Counted from the stretch's first letter, positions 100 through 62,502 are shown. The stretch: 64,000 nt of DNA from an uncultured Prevotellaceae bacterium (GCA_947307015.1 CAMZHV010000001.1:12846-76845), one strand, 5' to 3'. Numbers and translations: made by a program. The notes: generated by a model from the sequence alone, not told the origin.

Positions 100-3000
100 T
101 TATCGCCTTGACGTATTATAATTATATAGGAGGCCGCCGTTGGCTGTCTGACCTGCTGCATCGATGGCGATAGTGGTCTTCTGCGAGTTATTGAAGAGGC
201 GGACGTGGGCATGTCCGTTGGCGTCGAGCTTCAGTTCGGGATTCCAATAGAGCGTACGGCGGTAGTCCTTCTGACCTTCCTTGGGCGGATTGCGCTGATA
301 GTCGGGGCTGTAGAAATCCTCCTGGAAGGCAAAGCCGTCGAGGATGTAACGGCGGTCGCGGTAGGTGGCACGCTGGGAACCGTCCTTATAGCGATGGATG
401 TCCACGATGACTTCGGGCTGGTTGCTCTGCTCGTAACGCTCGTCGCCCTCACGGCGCGGCGAATAGTCGGTGTAGATGTAAATCTTGTCGAGGTTGCTCA
501 GCAGGCTGAAGCGCGCGCGCTCCAAAGGACCGTACCAGAAACTTGCAGGTTTGCCGTCTAAATAAGTCTTTGAGGTGTAGTGACGGTACATGCCCATATC
601 GCCTATCTTGACGCCTGTTATGCCACTGGTGGCATTGGAATAACCGCCGAAGAATCCAGCATCCATGGACTCGTTATGGGCTTGGTAAGCATCAATGACG
701 TAGGCGGGTTTGGAGAGGTCGACGTGCCGTAAGCCGCCGTGGCGGGTGCGCACGGTGATCTGGTCGAGCAGATGAGTGCCGTCGGTTAGCAGACGGGGTG
801 ATAAGTAGGTGGTATCGCGCAGTGGCGCATTGTGTACCTGATAATAGGTATAGGGCTTAATCCAGCGGGGGTAGGGAAAGTTGAGACGCACATAGTATTC
901 GGGGAAATCGCCGAGGCGCCCTGCCATGAGGTCGTATTCCGTCTGCCTGTCTATCTGTACCCAAGCGTGTGGTTTACGACGGTGTAATCCATCCCATTTC
1001 TTCTTCCATTTGGTGGTGTCGCTGGCACCGAGGAAGAATTCGCATTGCCCCTCGAAGCGCGGCAGATCGATTTGGAAAGTGCCGTTTGTGGTCTCCGTCT
1101 CGCCGACGAGGAAGTCGTTGGGGTCGTAGAGATTGATGAACTCGGCGTGTACGCGCACCTCCTTCTTCACGGTGCCACGCTCGATATAACGCCGTGCGGC
1201 GAGTTTGCGTTGCCTGCGCTGCTGCTCCTGATAGAGACGGTTGGTGCGGAAGCTGAGAACGTTGTAGTCCGTAGATTCCCAGTCGTTCCCTTGTAGAGAA
1301 TATATGCCATGCCAAGTGTCGGAGATGGCACCTATATTACTGCGCTGCTCGTAGATAGGGCTGAGGTTCCAAGCCATATTCCTGCGGCTATAGCCCACGG
1401 GCAAGCCTTGATGAAAATCGTTGGCATGGAAAGCTGTCGGACGGCCGTCGGCCTCGAAGAGCGGGTTCGACTGTTGCTCGCTCAGCGAAGGCGTCTGTTC
1501 CATCATGAAGCGCTCATGGTCGGCAGCCACATCTTGGAAAATATTGTCGCGCTCTTCCATAAGGCTCCAGTAGCGGTTCACGGTGCCGGTGACAATTTGC
1601 GTGTGTTCGGCGGGATGCGTGATGTCCCAAGCTCCCTTGATGGCCATATCCTGCCAGTTGAAGCGTCGCCAGCCCTGTGTCAGCATGAGCAGGTCGAGGG
1701 CGCGTCGGTGTTCCTCGTCGTCTTTTTCAAAGAAGTAATCGGGTTGCGGCACGAAGCCCTTGATTTCTGAGGCTAAGAGCAGCTCGGTCATGATGTTTCC
1801 GCTGTCGAAGGTGTTGTCGGAGTGGATGACATCGCGTACTGTCAGCGACACGGTTTGATCGGGCATGAGATGGGCAGAAGTGACGTCGAAGTCGATGCGT
1901 TCGAACGGCTCATACTGCTCCTTCTGACCCGTGAACTGTAGCGTTGGCTGCATGAGCTCAGGGTTGGTGACGAAGAAGAGTCGGTCGGCGTAGATATGAC
2001 CGATGGAATCGAAGACGGTGATCTGGTAGACGCCTGGGGAAGACTCTCCCCCCGCCCTCCCTGTTAGGGAGGGAGTAAAATGAATTTGAGAATGGGGGGT
2101 GGGGCTCATTTCTTCGAAGAACGCCACCTTCCCTTCGTTCATCACGGTGATGCCCAAGGGCTGTTGGGCAGCGAGACCTGCTGCGGCGATGTCGAAGAGC
2201 CAGTCTCCTGTAATCGTGTCACGGCGCACCTGCAAAGCCACGCCTTCGGACTTGATGTCTTTGATGTCCTGACTGACGGTCACTGGCTTCTTTGTGTCCT
2301 TGGGCTGCTCGTCGGGTGTGAAAACTGCCTCGTATTTCACCCCTTCCTGGGGCGTGAAGATGAAGGTGCCGCGGCCTCGGTTCTCAGTTATCACGGAGTC
2401 TACTACCTCGCCTTGATCGTTTTTGACTTTTATGATGTCTTTTTTCACGCGAAGGCATAGTGAGCCTTCCTTCATTTCACCCTCACTCGTTGCCGCCTCA
2501 AAGGCTACGCGGCAGGGCACACCTGCAACGAGATTGCCTCCCTCGGGGAAGAGGGAGAGGCGCAGTTCGGGGGCTTTAGGTTCGCTCTTAAAGTAGCGGC
2601 GCAACGGACGGAAGGTCATATCGCGGTAGAAATCACCCTCCTCCTTGGGTTTGTCGTAGACGGGGAAGACGCGCGAGTAGAGCTTCTCGTAATCGCGGAA
2701 GAAGTCCTTGGCCATTGCCTTGTTGTAGAAGCTGTATTCCGTTGACCACGCATGGAAGTGCTCCGTCTGCCCCCAGTTGAGCTGCCAGCGCGTGTAGGCA
2801 CGAAGCTCGAAGTAACCGGAATAGAGCGTGTCGGGCAGGGCAAAGAAGCCGTGACCGCGGCCTTCCTTCATCTCCACCAGCTTACGTTCGACCATGTAGC
2901 CGTCGTGGTTCCATAGCTCGGCATACAGCACGCGGGAGATGCGGCTTGGTTTGTCGTCGTTCGTACGGCGGGTGTAGGCAGCAAACCAGATGGTGTCGCC

Positions 3001-4404
3001 GAGGAAATAACTGGTGTTGTCCATGTGAACATAGACCTTCTCCTGTGGGATGAAGGTGCCGAAGCGTTCGAGGCGATCAACCAGGCGTTCCATTGGCGGT
3101 AGTGAAGCCTGATAGGCTGCGACGCTGTCGAGGCGCGCCTGCAGCAGATCCACAGTACCTTGCGCGATGGCCTGTTCCTCTGCAGTGCGTTTGATAATTT
3201 CATTATTGGCCCAGAAGGTGCTGTCGTATCCTGCTTCAGAAATGGCACTAAGCATATTCTCACGTGCACGCGCGCTTTTCTTTATTTTAAGGTGCGACTG
3301 GCCTTCCGTATTGAAGAGCATCGTGCGCGTCTGGAAGTCTCCCCATTTGGTTTGCATAGACAGGTCAGCGACTTCGGGGTATTTGTGGTCATAGCGATAG
3401 TCGATATGGAAATCCAGCGTCACGGGTATTACCGTAGCACTACGCAGGCTCCCCTTGCCGAAACTGATTTTCATGTTTTCCACTTGTCCGTCGAAAGCCA
3501 GCACGCTGAGCGTCCTGCGGTCGACATAGAGCGTACCTGTCATGATTGGCTGCTGGATGTCAAGGTTTTCGTTGCGTTTGAAATGGACGATATAGAGCTG
3601 TTGATCGGCATCTGCCGCTTCCTCGAAGGTAATATCGTAGTATTTTTTGAAGTATGAGATATTGCTGGTCTTCCTTTCTTTTTTTGCAGCACGATGTGCC
3701 CAGTCGTAGTAGTAGCTTTGCTGATGGTTGTAACCCGTGAAGCCCTTCTCGGGCAACGGAGTCAGCAGACGGTGCCAGAAGCTGGCATCGAGCGTCATTG
3801 GGCCTAACTCCAGGACGTGATGCAGGTTCATGTCGCTCAAATTGGACTCTGCCCACTGCTTCTGTGTTAATGCACCATGACGCCCTGTGAGGAAGGTCAG
3901 TTCGCGTAGGTTTACTGCCGAGCGTGCGCTGATGAATGCCTCCACGATGTCCTGCTTGCGGCTGATGACCGATGTTTGACGGTAGAAGAACTGTGCTGTC
4001 TTCGATTTCTTGCGATTGAAGGCTTTCTCCATCTGCTTGGCCACTTGTGCCAGGATGCTCTCGATGGCAGTCACCGTCACCTCGGAGAGCGTCGATGAGA
4101 GCATCTTCATCTTGATGGTTTTCGGTAGTTTGTTGGCGCGCAGGGTCAAGGTTTCACGGCCAATGCACGTCAGGCGCACGACATCCGAGGAATCAGCAGT
4201 GATGCTGAATTCTCCATCGAAGTTCGTCAGCGTGTTGTTCTCCTCGCTGACATAAACGCCCACTAACGGCAATGCCTCACCCGATTCAGCATCGATCACG
4301 CGTGCTGAGAAGGTTGCTTGCGCCATCGTGGTAAGGGTGGCTGCCAGCAACAAACAAACTGCCAGCACGCGTCGCCATTCTATAATAAAAACCTTCGTTT
4401 CCAT
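100..4404 (-). CDS. Large secreted protein: CarboxypepD_reg-like N-terminal domain followed by an MG2/alpha-2-macroglobulin-like region
   Basis: 1434-aa ORF. Signal-like N-terminus (LLLAATLTTMAQA), then ARVIDAESGEALPLVGVYV...NFDGEFSI, typical of carboxypeptidase-regulatory-like domains. Carries a 66-nt in-frame module at 2042-2107. Confidence 0.6.
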   Translation of the reverse strand: METKVFIIEWRRVLAVCLLLAATLTTMAQATFSARVIDAESGEALPLVGVYVSEENNTLTNFDGEFSITADSSDVVRLTCIGRETLTLRANKLPKTIKMKMLSSTLSEVTVTAIESILAQVAKQMEKAFNRKKSKTAQFFYRQTSVISRKQDIVEAFISARSAVNLRELTFLTGRHGALTQKQWAESNLSDMNLHHVLELGPMTLDASFWHRLLTPLPEKGFTGYNHQQSYYYDWAHRAAKKERKTSNISYFKKYYDITFEEAADADQQLYIVHFKRNENLDIQQPIMTGTLYVDRRTLSVLAFDGQVENMKISFGKGSLRSATVIPVTLDFHIDYRYDHKYPEVADLSMQTKWGDFQTRTMLFNTEGQSHLKIKKSARARENMLSAISEAGYDSTFWANNEIIKRTAEEQAIAQGTVDLLQARLDSVAAYQASLPPMERLVDRLERFGTFIPQEKVYVHMDNTSYFLGDTIWFAAYTRRTNDDKPSRISRVLYAELWNHDGYMVERKLVEMKEGRGHGFFALPDTLYSGYFELRAYTRWQLNWGQTEHFHAWSTEYSFYNKAMAKDFFRDYEKLYSRVFPVYDKPKEEGDFYRDMTFRPLRRYFKSEPKAPELRLSLFPEGGNLVAGVPCRVAFEAATSEGEMKEGSLCLRVKKDIIKVKNDQGEVVDSVITENRGRGTFIFTPQEGVKYEAVFTPDEQPKDTKKPVTVSQDIKDIKSEGVALQVRRDTITGDWLFDIAAAGLAAQQPLGITVMNEGKVAFFEEMSPTPHSQIHFTPSLTGRAGGESSPGVYQITVFDSIGHIYADRLFFVTNPELMQPTLQFTGQKEQYEPFERIDFDVTSAHLMPDQTVSLTVRDVIHSDNTFDSGNIMTELLLASEIKGFVPQPDYFFEKDDEEHRRALDLLMLTQGWRRFNWQDMAIKGAWDITHPAEHTQIVTGTVNRYWSLMEERDNIFQDVAADHERFMMEQTPSLSEQQSNPLFEADGRPTAFHANDFHQGLPVGYSRRNMAWNLSPIYEQRSNIGAISDTWHGIYSLQGNDWESTDYNVLSFRTNRLYQEQQRRQRKLAARRYIERGTVKKEVRVHAEFINLYDPNDFLVGETETTNGTFQIDLPRFEGQCEFFLGASDTTKWKKKWDGLHRRKPHAWVQIDRQTEYDLMAGRLGDFPEYYVRLNFPYPRWIKPYTYYQVHNAPLRDTTYLSPRLLTDGTHLLDQITVRTRHGGLRHVDLSKPAYVIDAYQAHNESMDAGFFGGYSNATSGITGVKIGDMGMYRHYTSKTYLDGKPASFWYGPLERARFSLLSNLDKIYIYTDYSPRREGDERYEQSNQPEVIVDIHRYKDGSQRATYRDRRYILDGFAFQEDFYSPDYQRNPPKEGQKDYRRTLYWNPELKLDANGHAHVRLFNNSQKTTIAIDAAGQTANGGLLYNYNTSRR
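2042..2107 (+). repeat. Type-A GC module (GACTCTCCCCCCG + CCCTCCCT-GTT-AGGGAGGG) plus degenerate partner tail GGGGGGTGGGGCTC, in frame in a CDS
   Basis: Near-identical to the arms at 21852, 21951, 34589 and 34696. Translated on the minus strand as [22 protein letters not shown]. Confidence 0.85.
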
Positions 4405-15238: not shown

Positions 15239-15366
15239 ACAACGAATTTCACGAATTAAACGAATTCAGGTTGCGCAGTGTAAGAATGATCTTCGAATAG
15301 GTGTCATTCGTTATCAATCTTTGCTACACATAGAAAGTAATTCGTAAAATTCGTGTAATTCGTTGT
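15239..15366. repeat. AT-rich inverted-repeat element; each arm is three ACGAATT-type repeats
   Basis: Left arm acaacgaatttcacgaattaaacgaattc (15239-15267). The right arm (15337-15366) is its reverse complement, 26/30 by hand alignment. 69-nt spacer. Confidence 0.7.
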
Positions 15367-22532: not shown

Positions 22533-22543
22533 AGTAATTTGAC

Positions 22544-22572
22544 AATTATACGATTTTACGATTTAACAATTA
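22544..22572 (+). repeat. ACGATTT tandem motif (contains the 16-mer ACGATTTTACGATTTA) upstream of the DJ-1 gene
   Basis: The identical 16-mer recurs at 23387-23402 in the same orientation. Confidence 0.75.
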
Positions 22573-23380: not shown

Positions 23381-23408
23381 AATTTTACGATTTTACGATT
23401 TACAATCT
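23381..23408 (+). repeat. ACGATTT tandem motif (16-mer ACGATTTTACGATTTA) directly upstream of the pdxJ -7 box
   Basis: Second copy of the 22550-22565 16-mer. Confidence 0.75.
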
Positions 23409-23446
23409 ACTATTTATTTGTTTTTTTCGGGTAAATAAGCAAATTA

Positions 23447-23473
23447 TCTATTGTCCATTGTCCATAATCCATT
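23447..23473 (-). repeat. Solo ATTGTCC-heptamer arm related to the argB element
   Basis: tctattgtccattgtccataatccatt; compare 54284-54317. Confidence 0.55.
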
Positions 23474-23482
23474 AAAAAGACG

Positions 23483-23490
23483 TACCTTTG
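23483..23490 (+). promoter_or_regulatory. Putative -7 box TACCTTTG for tRNA-Ala
   Basis: 26 nt upstream of the mature tRNA 5' end. Confidence 0.5.
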
Positions 23491-23516
23491 CACTGCCAAA
23501 GCCAGAAATGGCGCAT

Positions 23517-23590
23517 GGGGATATAGCTCAGCTGGCTAGAGCGCGGCGTTCGCATCGCCGAGGTCGCGGGTTCGAATCCCGTTATCTCCA
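23517..23590 (+). tRNA. tRNA-Ala (anticodon CGC)
   Basis: Cloverleaf read by eye. Acceptor stem GGGGATA/TATCTCC with a G3:U70 pair. Anticodon stem CGGCG/CGCCG with loop TTCGCAT. T-arm GCGGGTTCGAATCCCGT. No encoded CCA. Confidence 0.9.
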
Positions 23591-23641
23591 CTCCTGTGGG
23601 CTGCCTCGTCAGCCATTTTCCCCTTTTTGATTTCCCCGCCT

Positions 23642-36702: not shown

Positions 36703-36764
36703 GCAGCATCGTGAATCTGCAATTGACGATTCACGATGCTGCAATTGACGGTTCGCGATGCTGC
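36703..36764. repeat. 15-bp perfect inverted repeat (GCAGCATCGTGAATC / GATTCACGATGCTGC) overlapping a 22-nt tandem duplication
   Basis: aattgacgattcacgatgctgc (36721-36742) is followed by aattgacggttcgcgatgctgc (36743-36764). Confidence 0.75.
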
Positions 36765-36791
36765 AACAAAAAGTTATAGGCGTTGAGGCGT

Positions 36792-36845
36792 ACAAAGCTG
36801 GACGTTCGCCCAAAGCTGGACGCTTGTCCAAAGTTGGAGGTTTGC
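36792..36845. repeat. Three tandem 18-nt repeats (CCAAAGCTGGACGnTTGn)
   Basis: acaaagctggacgttcgc / ccaaagctggacgcttgt / ccaaagttggaggtttgc, directly downstream of the alkaline phosphatase stop. Confidence 0.75.
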
Positions 36846-36857
36846 CTATTTGCTTGC

Positions 36858-38282
36858 CTATTCCACTTCGTAGCCGGCAATCTTAGCCATGCCCGGAGCT
36901 ATCTCGATGTTGTCGATACGGCCTTGGAAGATCTCGGTGCCAGGGCCAACAGCAAAGATGGGGACGTAGCCGTTGGAGTGTCCGCCGCTGGCCCAGCTGA
37001 TCATGGCGACCTCAGAGAGGATGTGCTTCGTGGTCTCGCAGAGGTCACCGATGCGGTCGCGCACAGCCTTGCTGTCGGGGTCGGCGTTGCTTTCAGTGAC
37101 GGCTTTCTCGATGTCGTTCCAACGACGCTGTATGCGCTCCTGCTGGGCATCCTTGAGCTTGATGCCTGCTCCGAAGCCCATGAGGTCGCGCAGCTGCTTC
37201 TCGACAGCAGTCCACGTGAACTTCTTCGGTGCCTTTTTGTATTGGTCGCGCAGGATGGACTTGAACTCATTGATGCTGCGACGCTGGTACTTGAGCAGGT
37301 CGGTGTGGATCTCGTAGGGACCTACGCCCATAGCCATACCGCCCGTCTCATGGTCGGCGCTGATGACGATGATGGTCTCGTCGGGGTGCTGCTGATAGAA
37401 TTCGTAGGCGACCTTGACAGCCTTGTCCATATCAAGCACCTCGTTGATGGCGGTGCCGATGTCGTTGCTGTGGCATGCCCAGTCAATCATGCCGCCTTCA
37501 ATCTGGAAGAAGAAGCCATCGGTGCCTTTATTCGAGAGATAGTTGATGCCGGCACGAACAATCTGCTCGAGGGTGAGGTCGTCCTTGTTCTGGTCGAGAG
37601 AGTAGGGCAGCTGATCGCTGGTGAGATGCTCGTTCCTCTTGTCGCTCTGGAAGAGGATGAGCTTGTCAGCCTTCAGGCCTTTCTTCTGATACTCCTTGTA
37701 GCCTTTTAGGATGGTGTAGCCTGCAGCCTTAGCCTGCTCATGCAGCGAAGGGCCGCCGTCCTTGACATGGGGCGTATGGAAGTCTGCTGCGGAAAAGAAG
37801 TCGAAGCCGCTCTTGCACAAGTCCTGACCAATCTCGTAGTACATGTTACGGTTGGGCTGGTGGCCGTAGAAGGAAGCGGGCGTAGCGTGCGTGATGGATA
37901 CTGTCGTGGCGATGCCCACGGCTTTGCCAGCTTTCTTGGCCCAGGTGGCAATGCTGGTGCAGGGCGTCTCCAGGTCTTCAAGCACGCCGATGGCGCCGTT
38001 CTTGGTCTTCTTGCCCGTAGCGAGCGCCGTGCCGCCAGCAGCGGAGTCGGTGACGCCATTGGTGGCAGAATAGGTGTTGACAAGTCCCACAACGGGGAAG
38101 CTGGCCATGAGGATAGGTTCGATACCAATCTTGCCCTTCAAGGCTGCCTGATAGGTCTCGGTGACGTTGATCTGGTTGACGCCCATGCCGTCGCCGATGA
38201 AATAAAATACATACTTGACCTCAGCGGAAGCCGTGAGGGCGATGAGTGTTGCCAATAGGCAACTGAGAAGACGATGTTTCAT
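36858..38282 (-). CDS. Alkaline phosphatase (PhoA family)
   Basis: 474 aa with a signal peptide. FIGDGMG, TDSAAGGTALATG (active-site Ser) and ADHETGG motifs. Confidence 0.9.
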   Translation of the reverse strand: MKHRLLSCLLATLIALTASAEVKYVFYFIGDGMGVNQINVTETYQAALKGKIGIEPILMASFPVVGLVNTYSATNGVTDSAAGGTALATGKKTKNGAIGVLEDLETPCTSIATWAKKAGKAVGIATTVSITHATPASFYGHQPNRNMYYEIGQDLCKSGFDFFSAADFHTPHVKDGGPSLHEQAKAAGYTILKGYKEYQKKGLKADKLILFQSDKRNEHLTSDQLPYSLDQNKDDLTLEQIVRAGINYLSNKGTDGFFFQIEGGMIDWACHSNDIGTAINEVLDMDKAVKVAYEFYQQHPDETIIVISADHETGGMAMGVGPYEIHTDLLKYQRRSINEFKSILRDQYKKAPKKFTWTAVEKQLRDLMGFGAGIKLKDAQQERIQRRWNDIEKAVTESNADPDSKAVRDRIGDLCETTKHILSEVAMISWASGGHSNGYVPIFAVGPGTEIFQGRIDNIEIAPGMAKIAGYEVE

Positions 38283-38285
38283 TAT

Positions 38286-38320
38286 AGTTAAGAGTTAAAA
38301 GTTAGGTGTTTAAGGTTTAA
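38286..38320. repeat. Five tandem AGTTAAN/GTTTAA-type heptamers directly upstream of the alkaline phosphatase ATG
   Basis: agttaag agttaaa agttagg tgtttaa ggtttaa. Confidence 0.6.
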
Positions 38321-38368
38321 GAGGGGAGGGGACCTCGGCTGGTGCCGAGGGCACGGTGGTGGGGTTGG
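38321..38368 (-). repeat. Single C-tail + hairpin module variant at the PPIase|alkaline phosphatase junction
   Basis: Minus strand reads CCAACCCCACCACCGTG-CCCTCGGCACCAGCCGAGG-TCCCCTCCCCTC, starting right after the PPIase stop. Confidence 0.4.
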
Positions 38369-39067
38369 TTATTCGACGATTGTTTTGATGATCATGACAT
38401 CCTCAAGGGGGCGGTCGTTCTTGTCTGTGGCTACGGCCTGTATAGCCTTGACGACCTTCATGCCGTCGATGACGCGACCGAAGACGGTGTAGGTGCCGTC
38501 AAGGTGAGGCGAGCCGCCATATTGCAGGTAGTCGTTCCACATATCGCGTGTCATCTCAATGCCCTGCTCGGCGAGGGCAGCACGCTGCTTGCCCAAGGAA
38601 CTTTCACCCCACGAGCGGCCATAAACGATGTAGAACTGCGAGCCGCTACTGCGCATCTCGGGATTCACATCGTCGCTTTCGCGGGCTGCTGCCAGCGCTC
38701 CGCGCACATGATAAAGCCAGGGGAGGTCGAACTCGGCAGGAAGCGTATAGCCTGTATCTCCTTCACCCAAAGGCTTCTCGCGTGAGGGCGATACAAGTTG
38801 CCCGTCCACCGTCTTCACGCGGCTGTCGGGATCGCCGCCCTGAATCATGAAGTCCTTGATGACGCGGTGGAAGAGTGTGCTGTCATAGAAACCTGCACGA
38901 CAGAGTTTCACGAAGTTATCGCGGTGCTTCGGCGTCTCGTCGCTCAGCTCTACGCGTATGGTGCCTGCCGTTGTCTCTATACGAATACGCTGCTTCTTCG
39001 GCTTGGCCTGAAGAGCCATACCGAAGAGCAGCGTAAGCGTGATAATCAGCGCGATTCGTTGTTTCAT
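38369..39067 (-). CDS. Peptidyl-prolyl cis-trans isomerase (cyclophilin type), secreted
   Basis: 232 aa with a signal peptide. FHRVIKDFMIQGGDP and SGSQFYIV motifs. Confidence 0.92.
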   Translation of the reverse strand: MKQRIALIITLTLLFGMALQAKPKKQRIRIETTAGTIRVELSDETPKHRDNFVKLCRAGFYDSTLFHRVIKDFMIQGGDPDSRVKTVDGQLVSPSREKPLGEGDTGYTLPAEFDLPWLYHVRGALAAARESDDVNPEMRSSGSQFYIVYGRSWGESSLGKQRAALAEQGIEMTRDMWNDYLQYGGSPHLDGTYTVFGRVIDGMKVVKAIQAVATDKNDRPLEDVMIIKTIVE

Positions 39068-45340: not shown

Positions 45341-46900
45341 ATGAACCTTTTATCTATCGACCCTGCAGCCATCGACTGGGCGCGAGCGCAGTTTGCCCTC
45401 ACGGCCATCTATCACTGGCTCTTTGTCCCATTAACTTTGGGAGTTGGCCTCATCATGGCCATCATTGAAACAAAGTACTACCGCACAGGTGACGCGTTCT
45501 GGCGTCGTGCGGCACAATTCTGGCAGCGCCTCTTTGGCATCAACTTCGCCATGGGCGTAGCCACGGGCATCATCCTCGAGTTCGAGTTTGGCACTAACTG
45601 GTCCAACTACTCCTGGTTTGTCGGCGACATCTTCGGTGCGCCTTTAGCCATCGAGGGTATCGTGGCGTTCTTCATGGAATCGACCTTCGTGGCCGTTATG
45701 TATTTCGGTTGGGAGAAAGTGTCGCGAGGCTTCCACTTGGCTTCGACTTGGCTCACCTGGCTCGGCGCCACCATCTCGGCGTGGTGGATCCTCGTCGCCA
45801 ACTCATGGATGCAATATCCCGTGGGCTGCGAATTCAACCCCGACACCATGCGCAATGAGATGACTTCGTTCCTCGATGTGGCTCTCTCGCCCTTTGCCAT
45901 CGACAAGTTCTGCCACACCGTCATCTCATCTTGGATTGTCGGCGCCGTCTTCGTAGTGGCTGTTTCGGCATGGTACCTCCTCAAGAAACGCGAAGCCGAG
46001 CGCGCGCTGGCACTCAAGAGCTTACGCATCGGAGCCATCGTGGGACTCATCGCTGCTGTGCTGGCTGGTGCTACGGGCCACAAGTCGGCACAGACAGTCG
46101 CCGCCGTGCAACCCATGAAGCTCGCCGCCATGGAGGCGCTCTACGACGGCGGCAACGCTCAGGGACTCAAAATTATAGAAGGCATCGAGGTGCCCTACGC
46201 CCTCTCCTTCATGGCTACCAACGACTTCAACGGCTTCGTGCCCGGTATTAATGATATATTAAAAGGTTACACGCGCGAGGACGGCACAGTAGAACCGTCA
46301 GCTCAGGAGAAGCGCGAGCGTGGGCAGATGGCCATCACAGCCCTCGAGAACTACCGCCGCCTCAAGGCTGACGAGAAAACCTTTGCCGACCAGGATCCCG
46401 ACGGCTACATCACCGCTGCCAAGGAAAAACAGCTGGCTATACTCAAAGAGAATATGCCCTACTTCGGCTACGGGTATATCAAGGACGAGGCCGAATTGGT
46501 GCCTCCCGTGGCAGTCAATTTCTGGGCTTTCCGCGTGATGGTTGGCTTCGGCGGTCTCTTCATCCTCTTCTTCGCCTACATTCTTTTCCTCAACTGGCGC
46601 AAAAAAGATATTTCCTCGATGAAATGGCTACTTTGGCTCAGCATCATCCTCGTGCCCTGCGCATACATCTGCTCTGAAAGCGGCTGGCTCGTGGCAGAGT
46701 TTGGACGCCAGCCCTGGACGATACAAGATATGCTACCCGTCGCTGCCTCCGTCTCGGACATCGGTTCTGGCGCCGTCGCCACGACCTTCTGGCTTTTCCT
46801 CGCGCTCTTCACCACGATGCTTGCCGTGGAAATCAATATCATGTTGAAACAGATTAAAAAGGGAGATCCCCTCCTCACTCCCCCTCAAGGGGGAGAGTAG
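45341..46900 (+). CDS. cydA: Cytochrome bd ubiquinol oxidase subunit I
   Basis: 519 aa. ARAQFALTAIYHWLFVPLTLG and GRQPWTIQDMLP motifs. The last 11 codons are a repeat arm. Confidence 0.95.
   Translation: MNLLSIDPAAIDWARAQFALTAIYHWLFVPLTLGVGLIMAIIETKYYRTGDAFWRRAAQFWQRLFGINFAMGVATGIILEFEFGTNWSNYSWFVGDIFGAPLAIEGIVAFFMESTFVAVMYFGWEKVSRGFHLASTWLTWLGATISAWWILVANSWMQYPVGCEFNPDTMRNEMTSFLDVALSPFAIDKFCHTVISSWIVGAVFVVAVSAWYLLKKREAERALALKSLRIGAIVGLIAAVLAGATGHKSAQTVAAVQPMKLAAMEALYDGGNAQGLKIIEGIEVPYALSFMATNDFNGFVPGINDILKGYTREDGTVEPSAQEKRERGQMAITALENYRRLKADEKTFADQDPDGYITAAKEKQLAILKENMPYFGYGYIKDEAELVPPVAVNFWAFRVMVGFGGLFILFFAYILFLNWRKKDISSMKWLLWLSIILVPCAYICSESGWLVAEFGRQPWTIQDMLPVAASVSDIGSGAVATTFWLFLALFTTMLAVEINIMLKQIKKGDPLLTPPQGGE
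46865..46897 (+). repeat. C-tail module variant (left arm of the cydA|cydB doublet), forms the cydA C-terminus
   Basis: GATCCCCTCCTCACTCCCCCTCAAGGGGGAGAG. Translated as DPLLTPPQGGE, then stop. Confidence 0.65.
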
Positions 46901-46965
46901 TCACCTCTAAGAATCGATTCAAACTACTCATCTCTCATCTTTAATCTCTCATCTTTTCTCATATT

Positions 46966-48228
46966 ATGATTACTTTTAGTTCTCTCATAAGTCTATTACA
47001 AACCGCCCTTCCCATTGCGGGGGAGCAGGAAGGGTGGCTGTCTTATTCCTTTCTCCAACACTATTGGTGCTTCGTTGTCGCACTGCTCGGCGCCATCCTC
47101 GTGTTCCTGCTCTTCGTCCAGGGTGCCAACTCTGTAGCCGGCAGCCTTGGATACACAGAGGAGGGCCGTCGCCTCGTCTATAACTCCACGGGCCGCAAGT
47201 GGGAGTTCACCTTCACCACGCTCGTCACCTTTGGCGGTGCTTTCTTTGCATCATATCCCCTGTTCTACAGTACTTCATTCGGCAGTGCTTATTGGCTGTG
47301 GATGCTCATCTTGTTCACTTTCGTGGTTCAGGCGGTGAGCTACGAGTTCCAGAACAAACTTGGCAACTTCTTCGGCCCTAAACCCTTCCAGTTCTGCCTT
47401 ACCCTCAACGGCATCCTCGGCCCGCTACTCCTCGGCGGCGCCGTTGCCACTTTCTTCGAAGGTAGTAATTTTATTGTAGAAAAAGGAAACCTCATCACTG
47501 GGGCTGGGGGTGGGTCTCTCGTTATCTCCCACTGGGCCAACGCTTCTCACGGTCTTGACGCCCTACTCAACCCCTGGGTGCTTGTTTTCGGCTTTGCTGT
47601 CGTCTTCTTGGCTCGCACGTTAGGCATCCTCTACGTCATGAACAATGTCGATGACGAGGACATCCGCAGTCGTGGCAGTGTGCGTCTTATCGGCGCCGCC
47701 GTGCCCTTCGTCATCCTCTTCGTGGCCTACCTCGTACACTTGCTCCTTAAGGACGGCTATGCCTACGACCCCACCACCGGTGTTATCTTCATGGAGCCCT
47801 ATAAGTACCTGCACAACCTGCTCGACATGTGGTACCTCCTTATTATATTATTAACAGGTGTAGTCCTCGTGCTCTACGGCATCGCCATCGAAATCTTCGG
47901 TCGGTCAGATAAATTGTCAAATCGTAAATGGTTAAATAGTCAAATCAACAAGGGTATCTGGCCTGCTGGTATCGGTACCGTGCTTACCGTGCTCGCCCTG
48001 CTGCTTTGCTCCGCTTGGAACAACACCGCCTACTACCCCTCTACCGCTGACCTGCAGTCGTCGCTCACCATGCAAAACTCCTGCAGCAGCGAATTCACCC
48101 TACGCACCATGTTCTACGTCTCTCTCCTCGTCCCCTTCGTTCTGGCTTACATCATCTACTGCTGGCGAGCCATTGATGCTAAAAAGATCACCAAGGAGGA
48201 GATCATGGAAGGAGAGCATACGTATTGA
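46966..48228 (+). CDS. cydB: Cytochrome bd ubiquinol oxidase subunit II
   Basis: 420 aa. FLQHYWCFVVALLGAILVFLLFVQG is a typical CydB N-terminus. It is preceded by 24 codons from spacer + repeat arm that supply the only usable ATG. Confidence 0.9.
   Translation: MITFSSLISLLQTALPIAGEQEGWLSYSFLQHYWCFVVALLGAILVFLLFVQGANSVAGSLGYTEEGRRLVYNSTGRKWEFTFTTLVTFGGAFFASYPLFYSTSFGSAYWLWMLILFTFVVQAVSYEFQNKLGNFFGPKPFQFCLTLNGILGPLLLGGAVATFFEGSNFIVEKGNLITGAGGGSLVISHWANASHGLDALLNPWVLVFGFAVVFLARTLGILYVMNNVDDEDIRSRGSVRLIGAAVPFVILFVAYLVHLLLKDGYAYDPTTGVIFMEPYKYLHNLLDMWYLLIILLTGVVLVLYGIAIEIFGRSDKLSNRKWLNSQINKGIWPAGIGTVLTVLALLLCSAWNNTAYYPSTADLQSSLTMQNSCSSEFTLRTMFYVSLLVPFVLAYIIYCWRAIDAKKITKEEIMEGEHTY
47003..47037 (-). 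repeat. C-tail module variant (right arm of the cydA|cydB doublet), translated in cydB
   Basis: CCGCCCTTCCCATTGCGGGGGAGCAGGAAGGGTGG. Translated as ALPIAGEQEGW. Confidence 0.6.
47907..47945. repeat. AT-rich tandem NNNAAAT repeats in frame in cydB
   Basis: gtcaaat cgtaaat ggttaaat agtcaaat. Translated as DKLSNRKWLNSQI. Resembles the AAATCGTAAA motif upstream of pdxJ and the DJ-1 gene. Confidence 0.45.
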
Positions 48229-53482: not shown

Positions 53483-53989
53483 TCAGAGGCCGAAGCCTTG
53501 GATAGCAGTGTATTGCTCGCGAAGCTTGGTGCGGGCACGGTGAAGGTAGACGCGCACCTGATCTTCGGAGAGGTTGAGCTGGACGGCAATCTCGTGGTAA
53601 GTGAAGCCTTCCACATCGCGGAGTCGGATGATGTCATCTTGCGGCGGTGTCAGCTGTGCGATGAGGTTGGCAATGAGTGCAGAATCGCCGATTTCATCGG
53701 GAGATTGAGTCGCCACGAGGGTATGTTCTACATCCGATTCGCCTTTGGGGGACATAGGCAGGGGAGCCATGCGGTCCATTTTTTTTCGACGGTCTAATGC
53801 CAGGTTCTTGGCAATCTGCATAAGCCAGTTAGGCATACTCTGTATCTGCGGCCATTCGCTGCGCCGCTCCCAGGCCTTGAGCATCGTGTCCTGCACCACA
53901 TCCTCTGCCTCAGCCTTGTCGACCGTGATGCTGAGCGCAAGACGATAGAGGCGATCGCGATGGGGAAGGATGGTGGTGCGGAAATCCAT
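53483..53989 (-). CDS. RNA polymerase ECF-type sigma-70 factor
   Basis: 168 aa. Region 2 (AEDVVQDTMLKAWE) and region 4 (RDVEGFTYHEIAVQLNLSEDQVRVYLHRARTKL). Confidence 0.9.
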   Translation of the reverse strand: MDFRTTILPHRDRLYRLALSITVDKAEAEDVVQDTMLKAWERRSEWPQIQSMPNWLMQIAKNLALDRRKKMDRMAPLPMSPKGESDVEHTLVATQSPDEIGDSALIANLIAQLTPPQDDIIRLRDVEGFTYHEIAVQLNLSEDQVRVYLHRARTKLREQYTAIQGFGL

Positions 53990-54888
53990 TATATCACTGT
54001 GCCGCCCTGAAGGTCATGGATGTTGGTGATGCGGACGCTGGCGACCCCTGCTCGCAAAGCTGCAAAAGCGTTCTCGAGCTTGGGGATCATTCCACCTGCA
54101 ATCGTACCGTCAGCCACAAAAGCGCGGAACTCAGGTTCTGTGAGATGCGGGATGAGAGTCGAGGAATCGGCGGGGTCGCGCATGACGCCGGGGAGCTCGA
54201 AGCAGAAGGTTAAAGTTAATGGACAATGGACAATGGACAATGGGCAATGAGTCCCATGCTTGTTCACTACTATTGCAGAAGCGTCATTGTCCATTGTCCA
54301 TTGTCCATTGTCGCATTTTGCCAAAGCGACAGCTACCGTCTGTGCCATCGTGTCGGCATTGATATTAAGCATATTGCCCTGACCGTCGTGCGTGAGGGGT
54401 GCGATGACGGGGGTGATGCCCATCTGGAGTAGTTGCAGGAGTTGGGTGCCGTCGGCACTGTCCACATCGCCAACAAAGCCGAAGTCGATGCCTTCGGGGG
54501 TGATTGGACGGCGATGGGCACGGATGAGGTTGAGGTCGGCACCGGTGAGTCCTAAGGCATTGACACCACGTGCCTGCAATTGTGCTACGATATTCTTATT
54601 GACAAGTCCGCCATAGACCATCGTCACAACGCGCAGCATCGCTGCATCCGTGATGCGGCGGCCGTCTACCATCTGACTCTCAATGCCAAGCTGTGCCGCT
54701 AACTTCGTCGCCGAGCGTCCACCGCCATGCACAAGCACCTTAGGCCCTTCAATTTTGACGAATTCATCGAGGAGAACGGCCAACTGCTCAGGGTCTTCAA
54801 CAACAGCGCCACCAACTTTTATCAAAGAAATGCTCCGACCTACGTGCGTGGGCTGGGACTCTTCTTTATTCAAGATACGTGTATCCAT
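53989..54888 (-). CDS. argB: Acetylglutamate kinase
   Basis: Start at MDTRILNK; the longer ORF to 55164 overlaps speA. IKVGGAVV, LVHGGG, NINADT and GGMIPK motifs. Carries a ~100-nt in-frame insertion. Confidence 0.88.
   Translation of the reverse strand: MDTRILNKEESQPTHVGRSISLIKVGGAVVEDPEQLAVLLDEFVKIEGPKVLVHGGGRSATKLAAQLGIESQMVDGRRITDAAMLRVVTMVYGGLVNKNIVAQLQARGVNALGLTGADLNLIRAHRRPITPEGIDFGFVGDVDSADGTQLLQLLQMGITPVIAPLTHDGQGNMLNINADTMAQTVAVALAKCDNGQWTMDNDASAIVVNKHGTHCPLSIVHCPLTLTFCFELPGVMRDPADSSTLIPHLTEPEFRAFVADGTIAGGMIPKLENAFAALRAGVASVRITNIHDLQGGTVI
54218..54317. mobile_element. MITE-like palindromic element with arms of four GGACAAT heptamers, in frame in argB
   Basis: Left arm aatggacaatggacaatggacaatgggcaatga (54218-54250). 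The right arm (54284-54317) is its reverse complement apart from 2-3 positions. 33-nt spacer. Confidence 0.8.
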
Positions 54889-62409: not shown

Positions 62410-62502
62410 TGTGTTTGTTCTTTTTTTATTTGTGGGGTTATTCTGTTTATTTGTAGGATTACGCTGTCATTCTCTTAACGGACATTTCTCACTAAGACGC
62501 TG

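Follow-up and report, generated by a model that had tools for sequence, protein, structure and literature searches.

How a palindrome built from tandem heptamers can reside inside the coding sequence of a biosynthetic enzyme, and by which route it came to be there, is the question raised by a 64,000-nt stretch of DNA from an uncultured Prevotellaceae bacterium (GCA_947307015.1, CAMZHV010000001.1:12846-76845; the whole stretch is called the window below, and positions are counted from its first letter). The element in question lies in argB, the gene of N-acetylglutamate kinase (NAGK), and consists of two inverted arrays of the heptamer GGACAAT around a 33-nt spacer. It is best read, at a rough probability of 0.55, as a locus-specific inverted pair of GGACAAT heptamer microsatellites, tolerated in a permissive ArgB linker that is hypervariable within its clade.

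The heptamer hairpin and its reading frame in argB

The palindrome at 54218-54317, with its GGACAAT arms and 33-nt spacer, was recovered as it had been delineated in a first-pass annotation, made from the sequence of the window alone (Table 1). Repeat search returned core arms at 54222-54250 and 54284-54312 (29 nt each, 97% complementary, 33 nt apart), and the palindrome reaches its full extent once the outer AATG/CATT and one C indel are counted. Tandem Repeats Finder (TRF) assigned a 7-nt unit with 4.6 copies per arm at 96% matches, i.e. more than the three head-to-tail copies which are the minimum for a heptamer simple sequence repeat (SSR). The window has 9 matches to (GGACAAT)2 with at most 2 mismatches, whereas shuffling predicts 0.43 and none of 100 shuffled sequences reached 9; all 9 fell either in the argB element or at 23443-23470, where a solo arm of the same heptamer had been annotated (23447-23473); this arm is real, though degenerate (3.4 copies, 82% matches) and intergenic. 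The GGACAAT unit is dispersed, with two loci in the 64-kb window and several loci each in the sister metagenome-assembled genomes (MAGs) CAMKTN01 and CAMVUB01. Folded as argB-sense RNA, the element gave a 25-bp stem at −55.8 kcal/mol (z = −8.3); folded as DNA, the hairpin gave z = −8.35.

ArgB reads through the element as ...VALAK-CDNGQWTMDNDASAIVVNKHGTHCPLSIVHCPL-TLTFCFE..., the insert comprising exactly 33 codons, from 54315 down to 54217. About 34 extra residues, in frame and between two conserved segments, had been proposed; the frame and the placement in a loop flanked by conserved ArgB segments held, and the size was corrected. When ArgB orthologues were aligned, the insert residues were absent in genomes without the repeat. 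Tryptic peptides spanning the insert include CDNGQWTMDNDASAIVVNK and HGTHCPLSIVHCPLTLTFCFELPGVMR. The host protein was assigned as ArgB by sequence and fold: the Pfam domain AA_kinase was found on identical or near-identical ArgB proteins, a PDB sequence search matched solved NAGKs (E 5e-36), and the NAGK motifs KxGG, GGG, NxNAD and GGMxxK were invariant in both alignments used (A1 and A2). The start codon is that of public gene calls, and a later start is possible. Gene order is speA (arginine decarboxylase)-argB-extracytoplasmic function (ECF) sigma factor, as in relatives, and the argB stop overlaps the start of the downstream sigma-factor gene. The closest genomes in the species-representative collection were uncultured rumen Prevotellaceae/Bacteroidaceae MAGs, at an ArgB identity of ~75%.

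Three strain variants of the window ArgB were retrieved from the protein collection, all of 299 aa and with an identical insert peptide. Two of the loci (L199 and L200) stem from two ENA samples (ERZ14210020, ERZ14210016) and the third (L235) from the Logan assembly of SRR25912794. Within argB, the window differed from L199/L200 at 10 nt (8 synonymous, 2 nonsynonymous) and from L235 at 43 nt (33 synonymous, 10 nonsynonymous; 5.4% of sites), with a ratio of nonsynonymous to synonymous substitution rates (dN/dS) across argB of roughly 0.1 for the latter comparison. Downstream of the insert, 7 of the 8 changes between the window and L235 were synonymous, which argues that the reading frame past the insert is under purifying selection. 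That argB carrying the insert is a functional gene and no pseudogene is well supported by these sequence comparisons, in which no decay was seen and purifying selection extends across the three strains. Unit copy number did not vary among the 3 strains of the window species. As a separate observation, the window and L199 are set apart over 20 kb by two indels only (at 62421 and 62491), a T-run altered by 2 nt and an indel of a single nucleotide, both intergenic and in a region with a 21-nt x2 repeat (62425-62467).

The position of the insert in the enzyme was mapped on solved and modelled structures. PDB NAGKs aligned up to query residue 189/190 (2jj4 chain residue 219) and resumed at query residue 229/230 (chain residue 228), so that the solved enzymes span the site with ~8 residues. 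By the amino-acid-kinase fold, the site is the linker between the last N-lobe helix, which bears NxNAD, and the first C-lobe strand. An AlphaFold2 (AF2) model computed on alignment A2 (predicted TM-score 0.75) contained a helix at residues 178-193 and a strand at 224-229, with coil at residues 194-223 and predicted local distance difference test values below 50 for residues 196-218. It superposed on NAGK structures with a TM-score of ~0.7, the core keeping the NAGK fold. The insert was thus mapped as a low-confidence coil between this helix and this strand; it is predicted to join the N-lobe helix (NADTMAQTVAVALAK) to the first C-lobe strand (TLTFCFE), and the host loop is modelled as a structurally permissive, floppy surface segment.

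A hypervariable linker and the wider class of heptamer arrays

The inter-lobe linker of ArgB has a constant length in most Bacteroidales. Measured from N[TI]NAD to CFE[KL], it comprises 29 aa without exception in Bacteroides, Segatella, Paraprevotella and others, and it carries a conserved ...(Y/F)(Y/F)DV motif. The ArgB loop of the rumen Prevotellaceae clade ranges from 26 to ~80 aa, the extra residues being translated repeats, either heptamer arrays of several units (AAACGCT units also among them) or GC-rich modules (Table 1). The closest insert-free ArgB (P0002, 85% identical) has a loop that is heptamer-rich but different. Four proteins of 94-96% identity (P0027, P0055, P0057, P0077; lengths 320, 327, 331, 342 aa) have loops which differ in unit sequence and unit number with the frame kept throughout; frame-shifted loop variants would escape a protein search, and frame preservation is in this respect partly ascertainment. 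In the loop arrays of the four strains, a 33/40-nt module (CGCTCGGCTCAAAGAGACGCTTGACCCTTCAAG between GGAC and AAT) is nested 0, 1 or 2 times, with two copies in L204 (2660-2739), one each in L234 and L206 (2612-2644), and none in L203 and L233. Judged from these alignments, the inter-lobe linker of ArgB is hypervariable in the rumen Prevotellaceae clade only. The first-pass annotation had set the heptamer element apart from the GC modules, with in-frame residence as the shared behaviour. Relatives host GC-rich modules, a second repeat class, in the very same loop. No evidence was found for a discrete mobile element family.

Length variation in ArgB of this clade was also observed at other sites. 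The N-terminus varies in length (P0003, P0012, P0016, P0027, P0100 and others; alignment A2 columns 1-75) and bears peptides typical of GC-rich modules, and in ArgB of L022 a third loop holds an insert of the GC-module type (PPITITPHQFLPSQGRSGGVSTTQS). The speA-argB spacer is wholly a GGACAAT-like array in L002 (1715-1748) and L004 (2973-3006), the closest two genomes of the species-representative collection, and the last unit of this array supplies the argB ATG.

A second in-frame hairpin was located in the rumen MAG RUI360 (L210, 4255-4395). It consists of (GGACAAT)n, a 36-nt spacer and (ATTGTCC)n, in frame 353 codons into a 971-aa open reading frame (ORF), which has no Pfam match and encodes a hypothetical protein unrelated to ArgB. 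The encoded peptide, MENGQWTMDND-YSASPKSNQQG-IVHCPLSIAH, has the architecture of the ArgB insert, and orthologues of the L210 protein show a hypervariable loop at this site, occupied by peptides of the heptamer or the GC-module type. Of the proteins from this species, five carry the hairpin and five lack exactly 22 residues. The short allele is without 66 nt, namely the spacer and the inner part of both arms, and its junction (ATGGAAAATGGA/CCATTATCC) has 1 nt of microhomology and leaves a mini-palindrome. Long (L210, L238) and short (L236, L237) alleles are intermingled across strain backgrounds. As the units kept are in phase with the deleted ones, the difference was read as deletion of an older hairpin, though insertion could account for it as well. 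In the Segatella copri complex, the site of a heptamer hairpin after the argB stop is empty in L037 and filled with 51 nt, with AAG microhomology, in L034, L038 and L040, so that such units are gained or lost as blocks. Separately, the same array AAGTGAAGAACGAAGAGTGAAGAATTC was seen after the speA stop and the argB stop across this complex (L032-L075; ~2900-3000, 3760-3860), its full palindromic version being present in L075, L050 and L032.

The abundance of such arrays was determined with TRF on 575 kb of Bacteroidales DNA, comprising the surroundings of argB and the window. Arrays of period 7 numbered 109 and had diverse units, compared with 45 arrays of period 8 and 15 of period 6. Among 22 neighbouring same-period arrays within 250 nt of each other, 11 were inverted pairs with reverse-complementary units and 1 was direct; the argB element alone among the 11 is intragenic. 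Exact (GGACAAT)3 occurred at more than 118 loci in many phyla, and convergent (GGACAAT)2...(ATTGTCC)2 pairs at 27 loci in other genomes, from Acidobacteriota to Bacteroidota. The spacers differed in all 27 of these hairpins, and 26 were intergenic or at gene edges. In some hairpins (L209, L215), variant units are mirrored in both arms, which fits inverted duplication. Most intergenic hairpins of the class directly follow stop codons; they are not canonical terminators, since T-rich tails are rare (after 4 of 27 GGACAAT and 2 of 48 GACAGTA hairpins).

GGACAAT as a special, horizontally spread unit was rejected, scrambled controls being about equally frequent. In viral contigs, three scrambled heptamers in three copies gave 7, 0 and 7 loci versus 8 for GGACAAT. 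Hairpin pairs of GACAGTA (48 loci) were at least as common as those of GGACAAT, a control that is imperfect in that GACAGTA is 2 substitutions from a rotation of GGACAAT and so not fully independent. The scrambled and related units argue that the occurrence of GGACAAT across phyla reflects a general 7-mer propensity, not one spreading family. Since a 7-mer array passes through all three frames and an inverted pair presents both orientations, a translated hairpin has to be open in six frames. Tandem GGACAAT has no stop codon in any of the six, which explains the persistence of its arrays within genes. Roughly one possible heptamer in two shares this six-frame openness, but none of 16 other units checked (mostly from intergenic arrays) did. 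Solo GGACAAT arrays were found in frame in three sister-MAG genes (Table 1).

Origin of the element and its rivals

Bacteria have been known since 1990 to carry heptamers repeated in tandem, the origin and spread of which are still unexplained. Heptamers are given as the most abundant long-SSR class in prokaryotes, with polymerase slippage as a possible cause (Mrazek 2007, as quoted in PMC4692102; PMC4679880), and genome-specific dispersed heptamers include TAACTGA in Beggiatoaceae (PMC4679880), GGGAATC in Xanthomonas and GGGGA(C/T)T in Nostoc (PMC4692102), as well as the cyanobacterial STRR families. By its sequence, the argB element appears to belong to such dispersed tandem heptamer repeats (long SSRs), which are abundant in Bacteroidales intergenic DNA and often form inverted pairs. 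As in the heptamer SSR/STRR families, a 7-nt unit occurs here in arrays of 2-6 or more copies at many loci, mostly intergenic and near gene ends, and for an unexplained origin slippage has been proposed. Arrays of those families vary between close strains; such variation was clear in the orthologous ArgB loop of another species, at 94-96% identity. Different from these families are the near-perfect inverted pair, the unique spacer and the in-frame position in the middle of an enzyme gene, hairpin arrangement and in-frame loop residence not being emphasised features there.

Related arrays change by unit gain or loss, nested small insertions and partial hairpin deletion, with the frame kept among the retrieved variants. 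In the preferred reading, the heptamer arrays would arise and expand through replication slippage, and selection would retain only stop-free, frame-preserving versions in a loop tolerant of extra residues; the insert peptide is probably without function. Several points weigh against this reading. The second, inverted arm would have to be supplied by a postulated intrastrand template switching (inverted duplication) across the present spacer. GGACAAT recurs at many loci within single sister genomes, which local slippage alone explains poorly, and at least four further genes contain it in frame (L083, L126, L129, L210), the last with a second in-frame hairpin that has the same arm peptides and a spacer of near-equal length (36 vs 37 nt). 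An empty site was not found in the window species, all 3 strain variants in the protein collection carrying the insert. Finally, the window and L235 show 0 differences in the 100-nt element versus 43 in the other 800 nt of argB, the nearest being 10 nt before and 1 nt after the element, and such a difference-free element is unexpected for a neutral, slippage-prone sequence. Difference-free 100-nt windows made up 10 of 801 in argB (1.2%; empirical P ~0.012). Extra conservation of both hairpins, strong by first Poisson estimates, was rejected, as the empirical window test kept the comparison of the window with L235 only; for the L210 and L238 hairpins the same test was not significant because divergence there is patchy. 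Extra conservation or recent spread thus rests on one comparison, for which a mosaic Logan contig is an alternative explanation.

The element was compared with known systems of short palindromes and repeats. Rickettsia palindromic elements (RPEs; Ogata 2000, reviewed in PMC10969869) are, as presented in that review, likewise palindromes of ~100-150 bp that lie in frame in housekeeping or metabolic genes and are tolerated at fold-compatible surface positions in several unrelated genes; the argB palindrome, too, keeps the frame of a functional gene and occupies a site compatible with the fold. By the same account, RPEs keep their full-length sequence and peptide, whereas here the heptamer arms recur around a unique core, the arms are tandem and the phylum is Bacteroidota. 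A family with conserved full-length sequence was not seen for the argB element, only the arm peptides NGQWTMDN and HCPLSIV recurring, and searches with the insert peptide gave no family: their matches were either unrelated repeat proteins or very small, spurious ORFs that overlie arrays. With REPIN/REP/BIME elements (PMC3116915) it shares inverted short repeats round a spacer, a long hairpin and a dispersed, mostly extragenic occurrence. The argB arms differ in being tandem GGACAAT without a GTAG/CGTC tag; REPINs are extragenic, and no RAYT was identified in the 64 kb available. Cyanobacterial small dispersed repeats (SDRs) of 21-27 nt are said to have been described, by Elhai in 2008 (a study cited in PMC5861425), as lying within arrays of tandem heptamers. 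In this respect they resemble the 33/40-nt module that sits within the ArgB-loop arrays of L204, L234 and L206; the module differs in being absent from the window, whose 33-nt spacer is unrelated to it (12/33 identical by eye).

Terminator-like mobile hairpins (SPRITE of S. pneumoniae, as listed in PMC10969869) and intrinsic terminators resemble the class in that hairpins follow stop codons. For the argB hairpin, an intrinsic terminator was rejected: the loop is 33 nt long, the terminator scan did not call the hairpin, and there is no U-tract tail, since the hairpin is followed by UAACUUUAACC on the argB strand and by GCAUUUUGCC on the opposite one. An Rfam search of the hairpin gave no family, and its matches to miRNA-type hairpins all stayed below threshold. 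A mechanism by which the spacer DNA inverts between the arms, both orientations staying open, was likewise rejected, the 33-nt segment being very short and no recombinase being linked to it. In the searchable literature, no description of such elements was found for Bacteroidota.

The main rival is a small non-autonomous mobile hairpin, similar to transposable elements of the miniature inverted-repeat type (MITEs), REPINs or RPEs, with heptamer-array ends and moved in trans by an enzyme; it would insert into or next to heptamer or short palindromic sequence and survive in genes only in permissive loops. This is a doubtful but serious candidate. In its favour, L210 has the same arms and a near-equal spacer length deep in an unrelated ORF, exactly 66 nt separate its long from its short alleles, which occur on intermingled backgrounds and share only 1 nt of microhomology at the junction, the Segatella copri complex offers a filled/empty pair, the window element is identical in a strain ~5% diverged (L235), and the module nested 0, 1 or 2 times in close strains recalls the SDRs. 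Yet the 22-nt window spacer and the 24-nt L210 spacer gave 0 matches each in JGI metagenome contigs and are not significantly alike (42% ungapped identity, P = 0.07 versus shuffles; homology is not claimed), the 27 hairpins in other genomes all have different spacers, and the units retained at L210 favour deletion of an older array. The sole candidate target-site duplication is the 2-nt AA that flanks the 100-nt palindrome, with a chance expectation of 1 in 16, and no transposase was linked to the element, the window ORFs not having been screened for transposases. Since removal of 99 nt (to ALAK/TLTF) and of 102 nt (to ALA/TLTF) both leave the frame intact, the element boundaries cannot be fixed. 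Of MITE features, terminal inverted repeats are present (29-33-nt arms, 97% complementary), the arms themselves being tandem repeats; copies sharing internal sequence were not found in the JGI contigs, among the 27 other hairpins or in the L210 spacer, and the sequences give no evidence for a classical MITE. Of the mobile element family suggested at first, only the heptamer array turned out to be shared, the spacer being without another copy and a convincing target-site duplication being absent. It is unlikely, in addition, that an RPE-like system so far undescribed in Bacteroidota is at work, in which heptamer hairpins and, separately, GC-rich modules actively spread and home to a few permissive protein loops. 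If it were, inserts would be kept or re-installed with nucleotide fidelity, giving hypervariable in-frame peptides in housekeeping enzymes such as ArgB, and a dedicated enzyme that recognises heptamer arrays or their hairpins would have to exist.

Selection of the hairpin as a nucleic-acid structure, whether as an mRNA stem on which ribosomes pause at the lobe boundary, as a site for RNase III or as an attenuator acting on the ECF sigma gene that is co-transcribed downstream, is improbable. The stable 25-bp stem, the difference-free comparison with L235, the position exactly at the domain junction and the overlap of the argB stop with the sigma-factor gene start would fit such a role, but the orthologous loops of relatives form a weak hairpin or none (z −0.3 to −3.6) and evolve fast, the replicate conservation test at L210 was not significant, and neither an Rfam family nor a terminator-like tail was found. 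Hardly credible is a last group of explanations, by which argB is decaying as a pseudogene, the palindrome stems from faulty assembly, or translation passes over the insert by programmed bypassing. Palindromes and repeats are prone to misassembly, but the element is identical in independent assemblies from different samples (the two ENA samples, the Logan assembly and the window), and a pseudogene is contradicted by the low dN/dS and by the mostly synonymous changes downstream of the insert. Precedents for the third variant are T4 gene 60 and the yeast mitochondrial 'byp' elements, in which translation bypasses a hairpin insert. Bypassing was nevertheless rejected as unnecessary for an in-frame, stop-free insert; all retrieved loop-insert variants are frame-preserving and stop-free, which would not be needed under bypassing, with the limit that frame-shifted ones escape the protein search.

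At the argB locus, heptamer repeats able to form long hairpins also live translated inside a functional biosynthetic enzyme, and one inter-lobe linker has become hypervariable throughout the clade, a site at which a second repeat class is found as well. The argB hairpin is a variant of kinds that are already known, namely heptamer SSRs and in-frame palindromes like the RPEs; the in-frame settling of such repeats in tolerant protein loops is apparently a wider habit that has gone undescribed. The system is tractable for two questions, namely how such repeats arise or move and how much 'junk' a protein loop absorbs: the enzyme is small and open to complementation tests, alleles that have inserts and alleles that lack them both occur in nature, and a second gene is polymorphic for a 66-nt indel. 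There is a consequence for annotation, too, as inserts of this kind inflate the variation in protein length and may give metabolic genes of rumen MAGs sites that are prone to frameshifts.

Feature coordinates and further repeats in the window

Table 1. Position and basis of the argB element, its host gene and related repeats; numerical positions refer to the window
Feature	Location	Strand	Basis or remarks
argB (N-acetylglutamate kinase), 299 codons + stop, insert-bearing	53989..54888	-	ORF/translation, Pfam AA_kinase, PDB matches, AF2
33 in-frame codons CDNGQWTMDNDASAIVVNKHGTHCPLSIVHCPL, not in orthologues	54217..54315	-	translation, orthologue alignments, AF2 coil
Palindromic heptamer-array hairpin, whole element, 100 nt	54218..54317	.	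repeat search, TRF, folding; 100% identical in L199, L200, L235
Arm A, AAT (GGACAAT)x3 GGGCAAT GA	54218..54250	+	repeat search, TRF
Spacer (hairpin loop), unique, 33 nt	54251..54283	.	repeat search; minus strand codes ASAIVVNKHGT
Arm B, TC (ATTGTCC)x3 ATTGTCG CATT	54284..54317	+	inverted arm A, 1 mismatch + one 1-nt indel
Solo degenerate GGACAAT array, ~3.4 units, 82% matches	23447..23473	-	intergenic, 44 nt upstream of tRNA-Ala(CGC)
Inverted arrays of ACGAATT-type 8-9-mers (ACGAATT[TA/AA]; AATTCGT..), 72-nt spacer	15241-15266 + 15339-15363	.	TRF
In-frame solo GGACAAT array	L083		alpha-galactosidase, Melibiase_C domain
In-frame solo GGACAAT array	L126		THUMP-like/PG_1098-type protein
In-frame solo GGACAAT array	L129		LamG/ricin-lectin protein linker
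MDNGQWT-type peptides (GGACAAT orientation)	ArgB loop of P0027, P0055, P0057, P0077, P0101, P0115		
CPLSIVH (ATTGTCC orientation)	ArgB loop of P0109		
IINHQSS repeats	ArgB loop of P0080, P0089		
CTCACCN units	ArgB loop of P0002		
GC-rich-module peptides, e.g. PSLTGGVGGGS	ArgB loop of P0003, P0006, P0030, P0100		

Further repeats were noted elsewhere in the window. The inverted pair at 15241..15363 is intergenic, starts 9 nt past a stop codon and has the architecture of the argB element with another unit. Octamer arrays of ATTTTACG lie at 22537-22564 and 23382-23401, both intergenic and ~850 nt apart, the latter 50 nt upstream of the solo GGACAAT array and tRNA-Ala. Within 23450-23516, about 10 nt past the end of this solo ATTGTCC array, a TAccTTTG motif that resembles the Bacteroidetes −7 promoter element precedes tRNA-Ala(CGC) at 23517-23591. 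Inside the plus-strand ORF 46966-48228 (420 aa), an AT-rich array with a period of ~9 nt (TAAATTGTC AAATCGTAA ATGGTTAAA TAGTCAAAT) occupies 47910-47945; it reads in frame as DKLSNRKWLNSQ and may be another in-frame repeat insert. At 38286-38370 (AGTTAAG-type) and 46870-46954 (CTCATCT-type), heptamer arrays abut GC-rich palindromic modules (gggaggggacctcggctggtgccgagggc... and tcccctcctcactccccctcaagggggagag, respectively), so that the heptamer and GC-rich classes co-locate in intergenic DNA at those sites, as they do in the ArgB loop of relatives. Two repeats stand one after the other at 36717-36846: the first is a tandem repeat of 22 nt (x2.3), and the second, of 18 nt (x3; CAAAGCTGGACGTTTGCC), overlaps the start of ORF 36783-37709.

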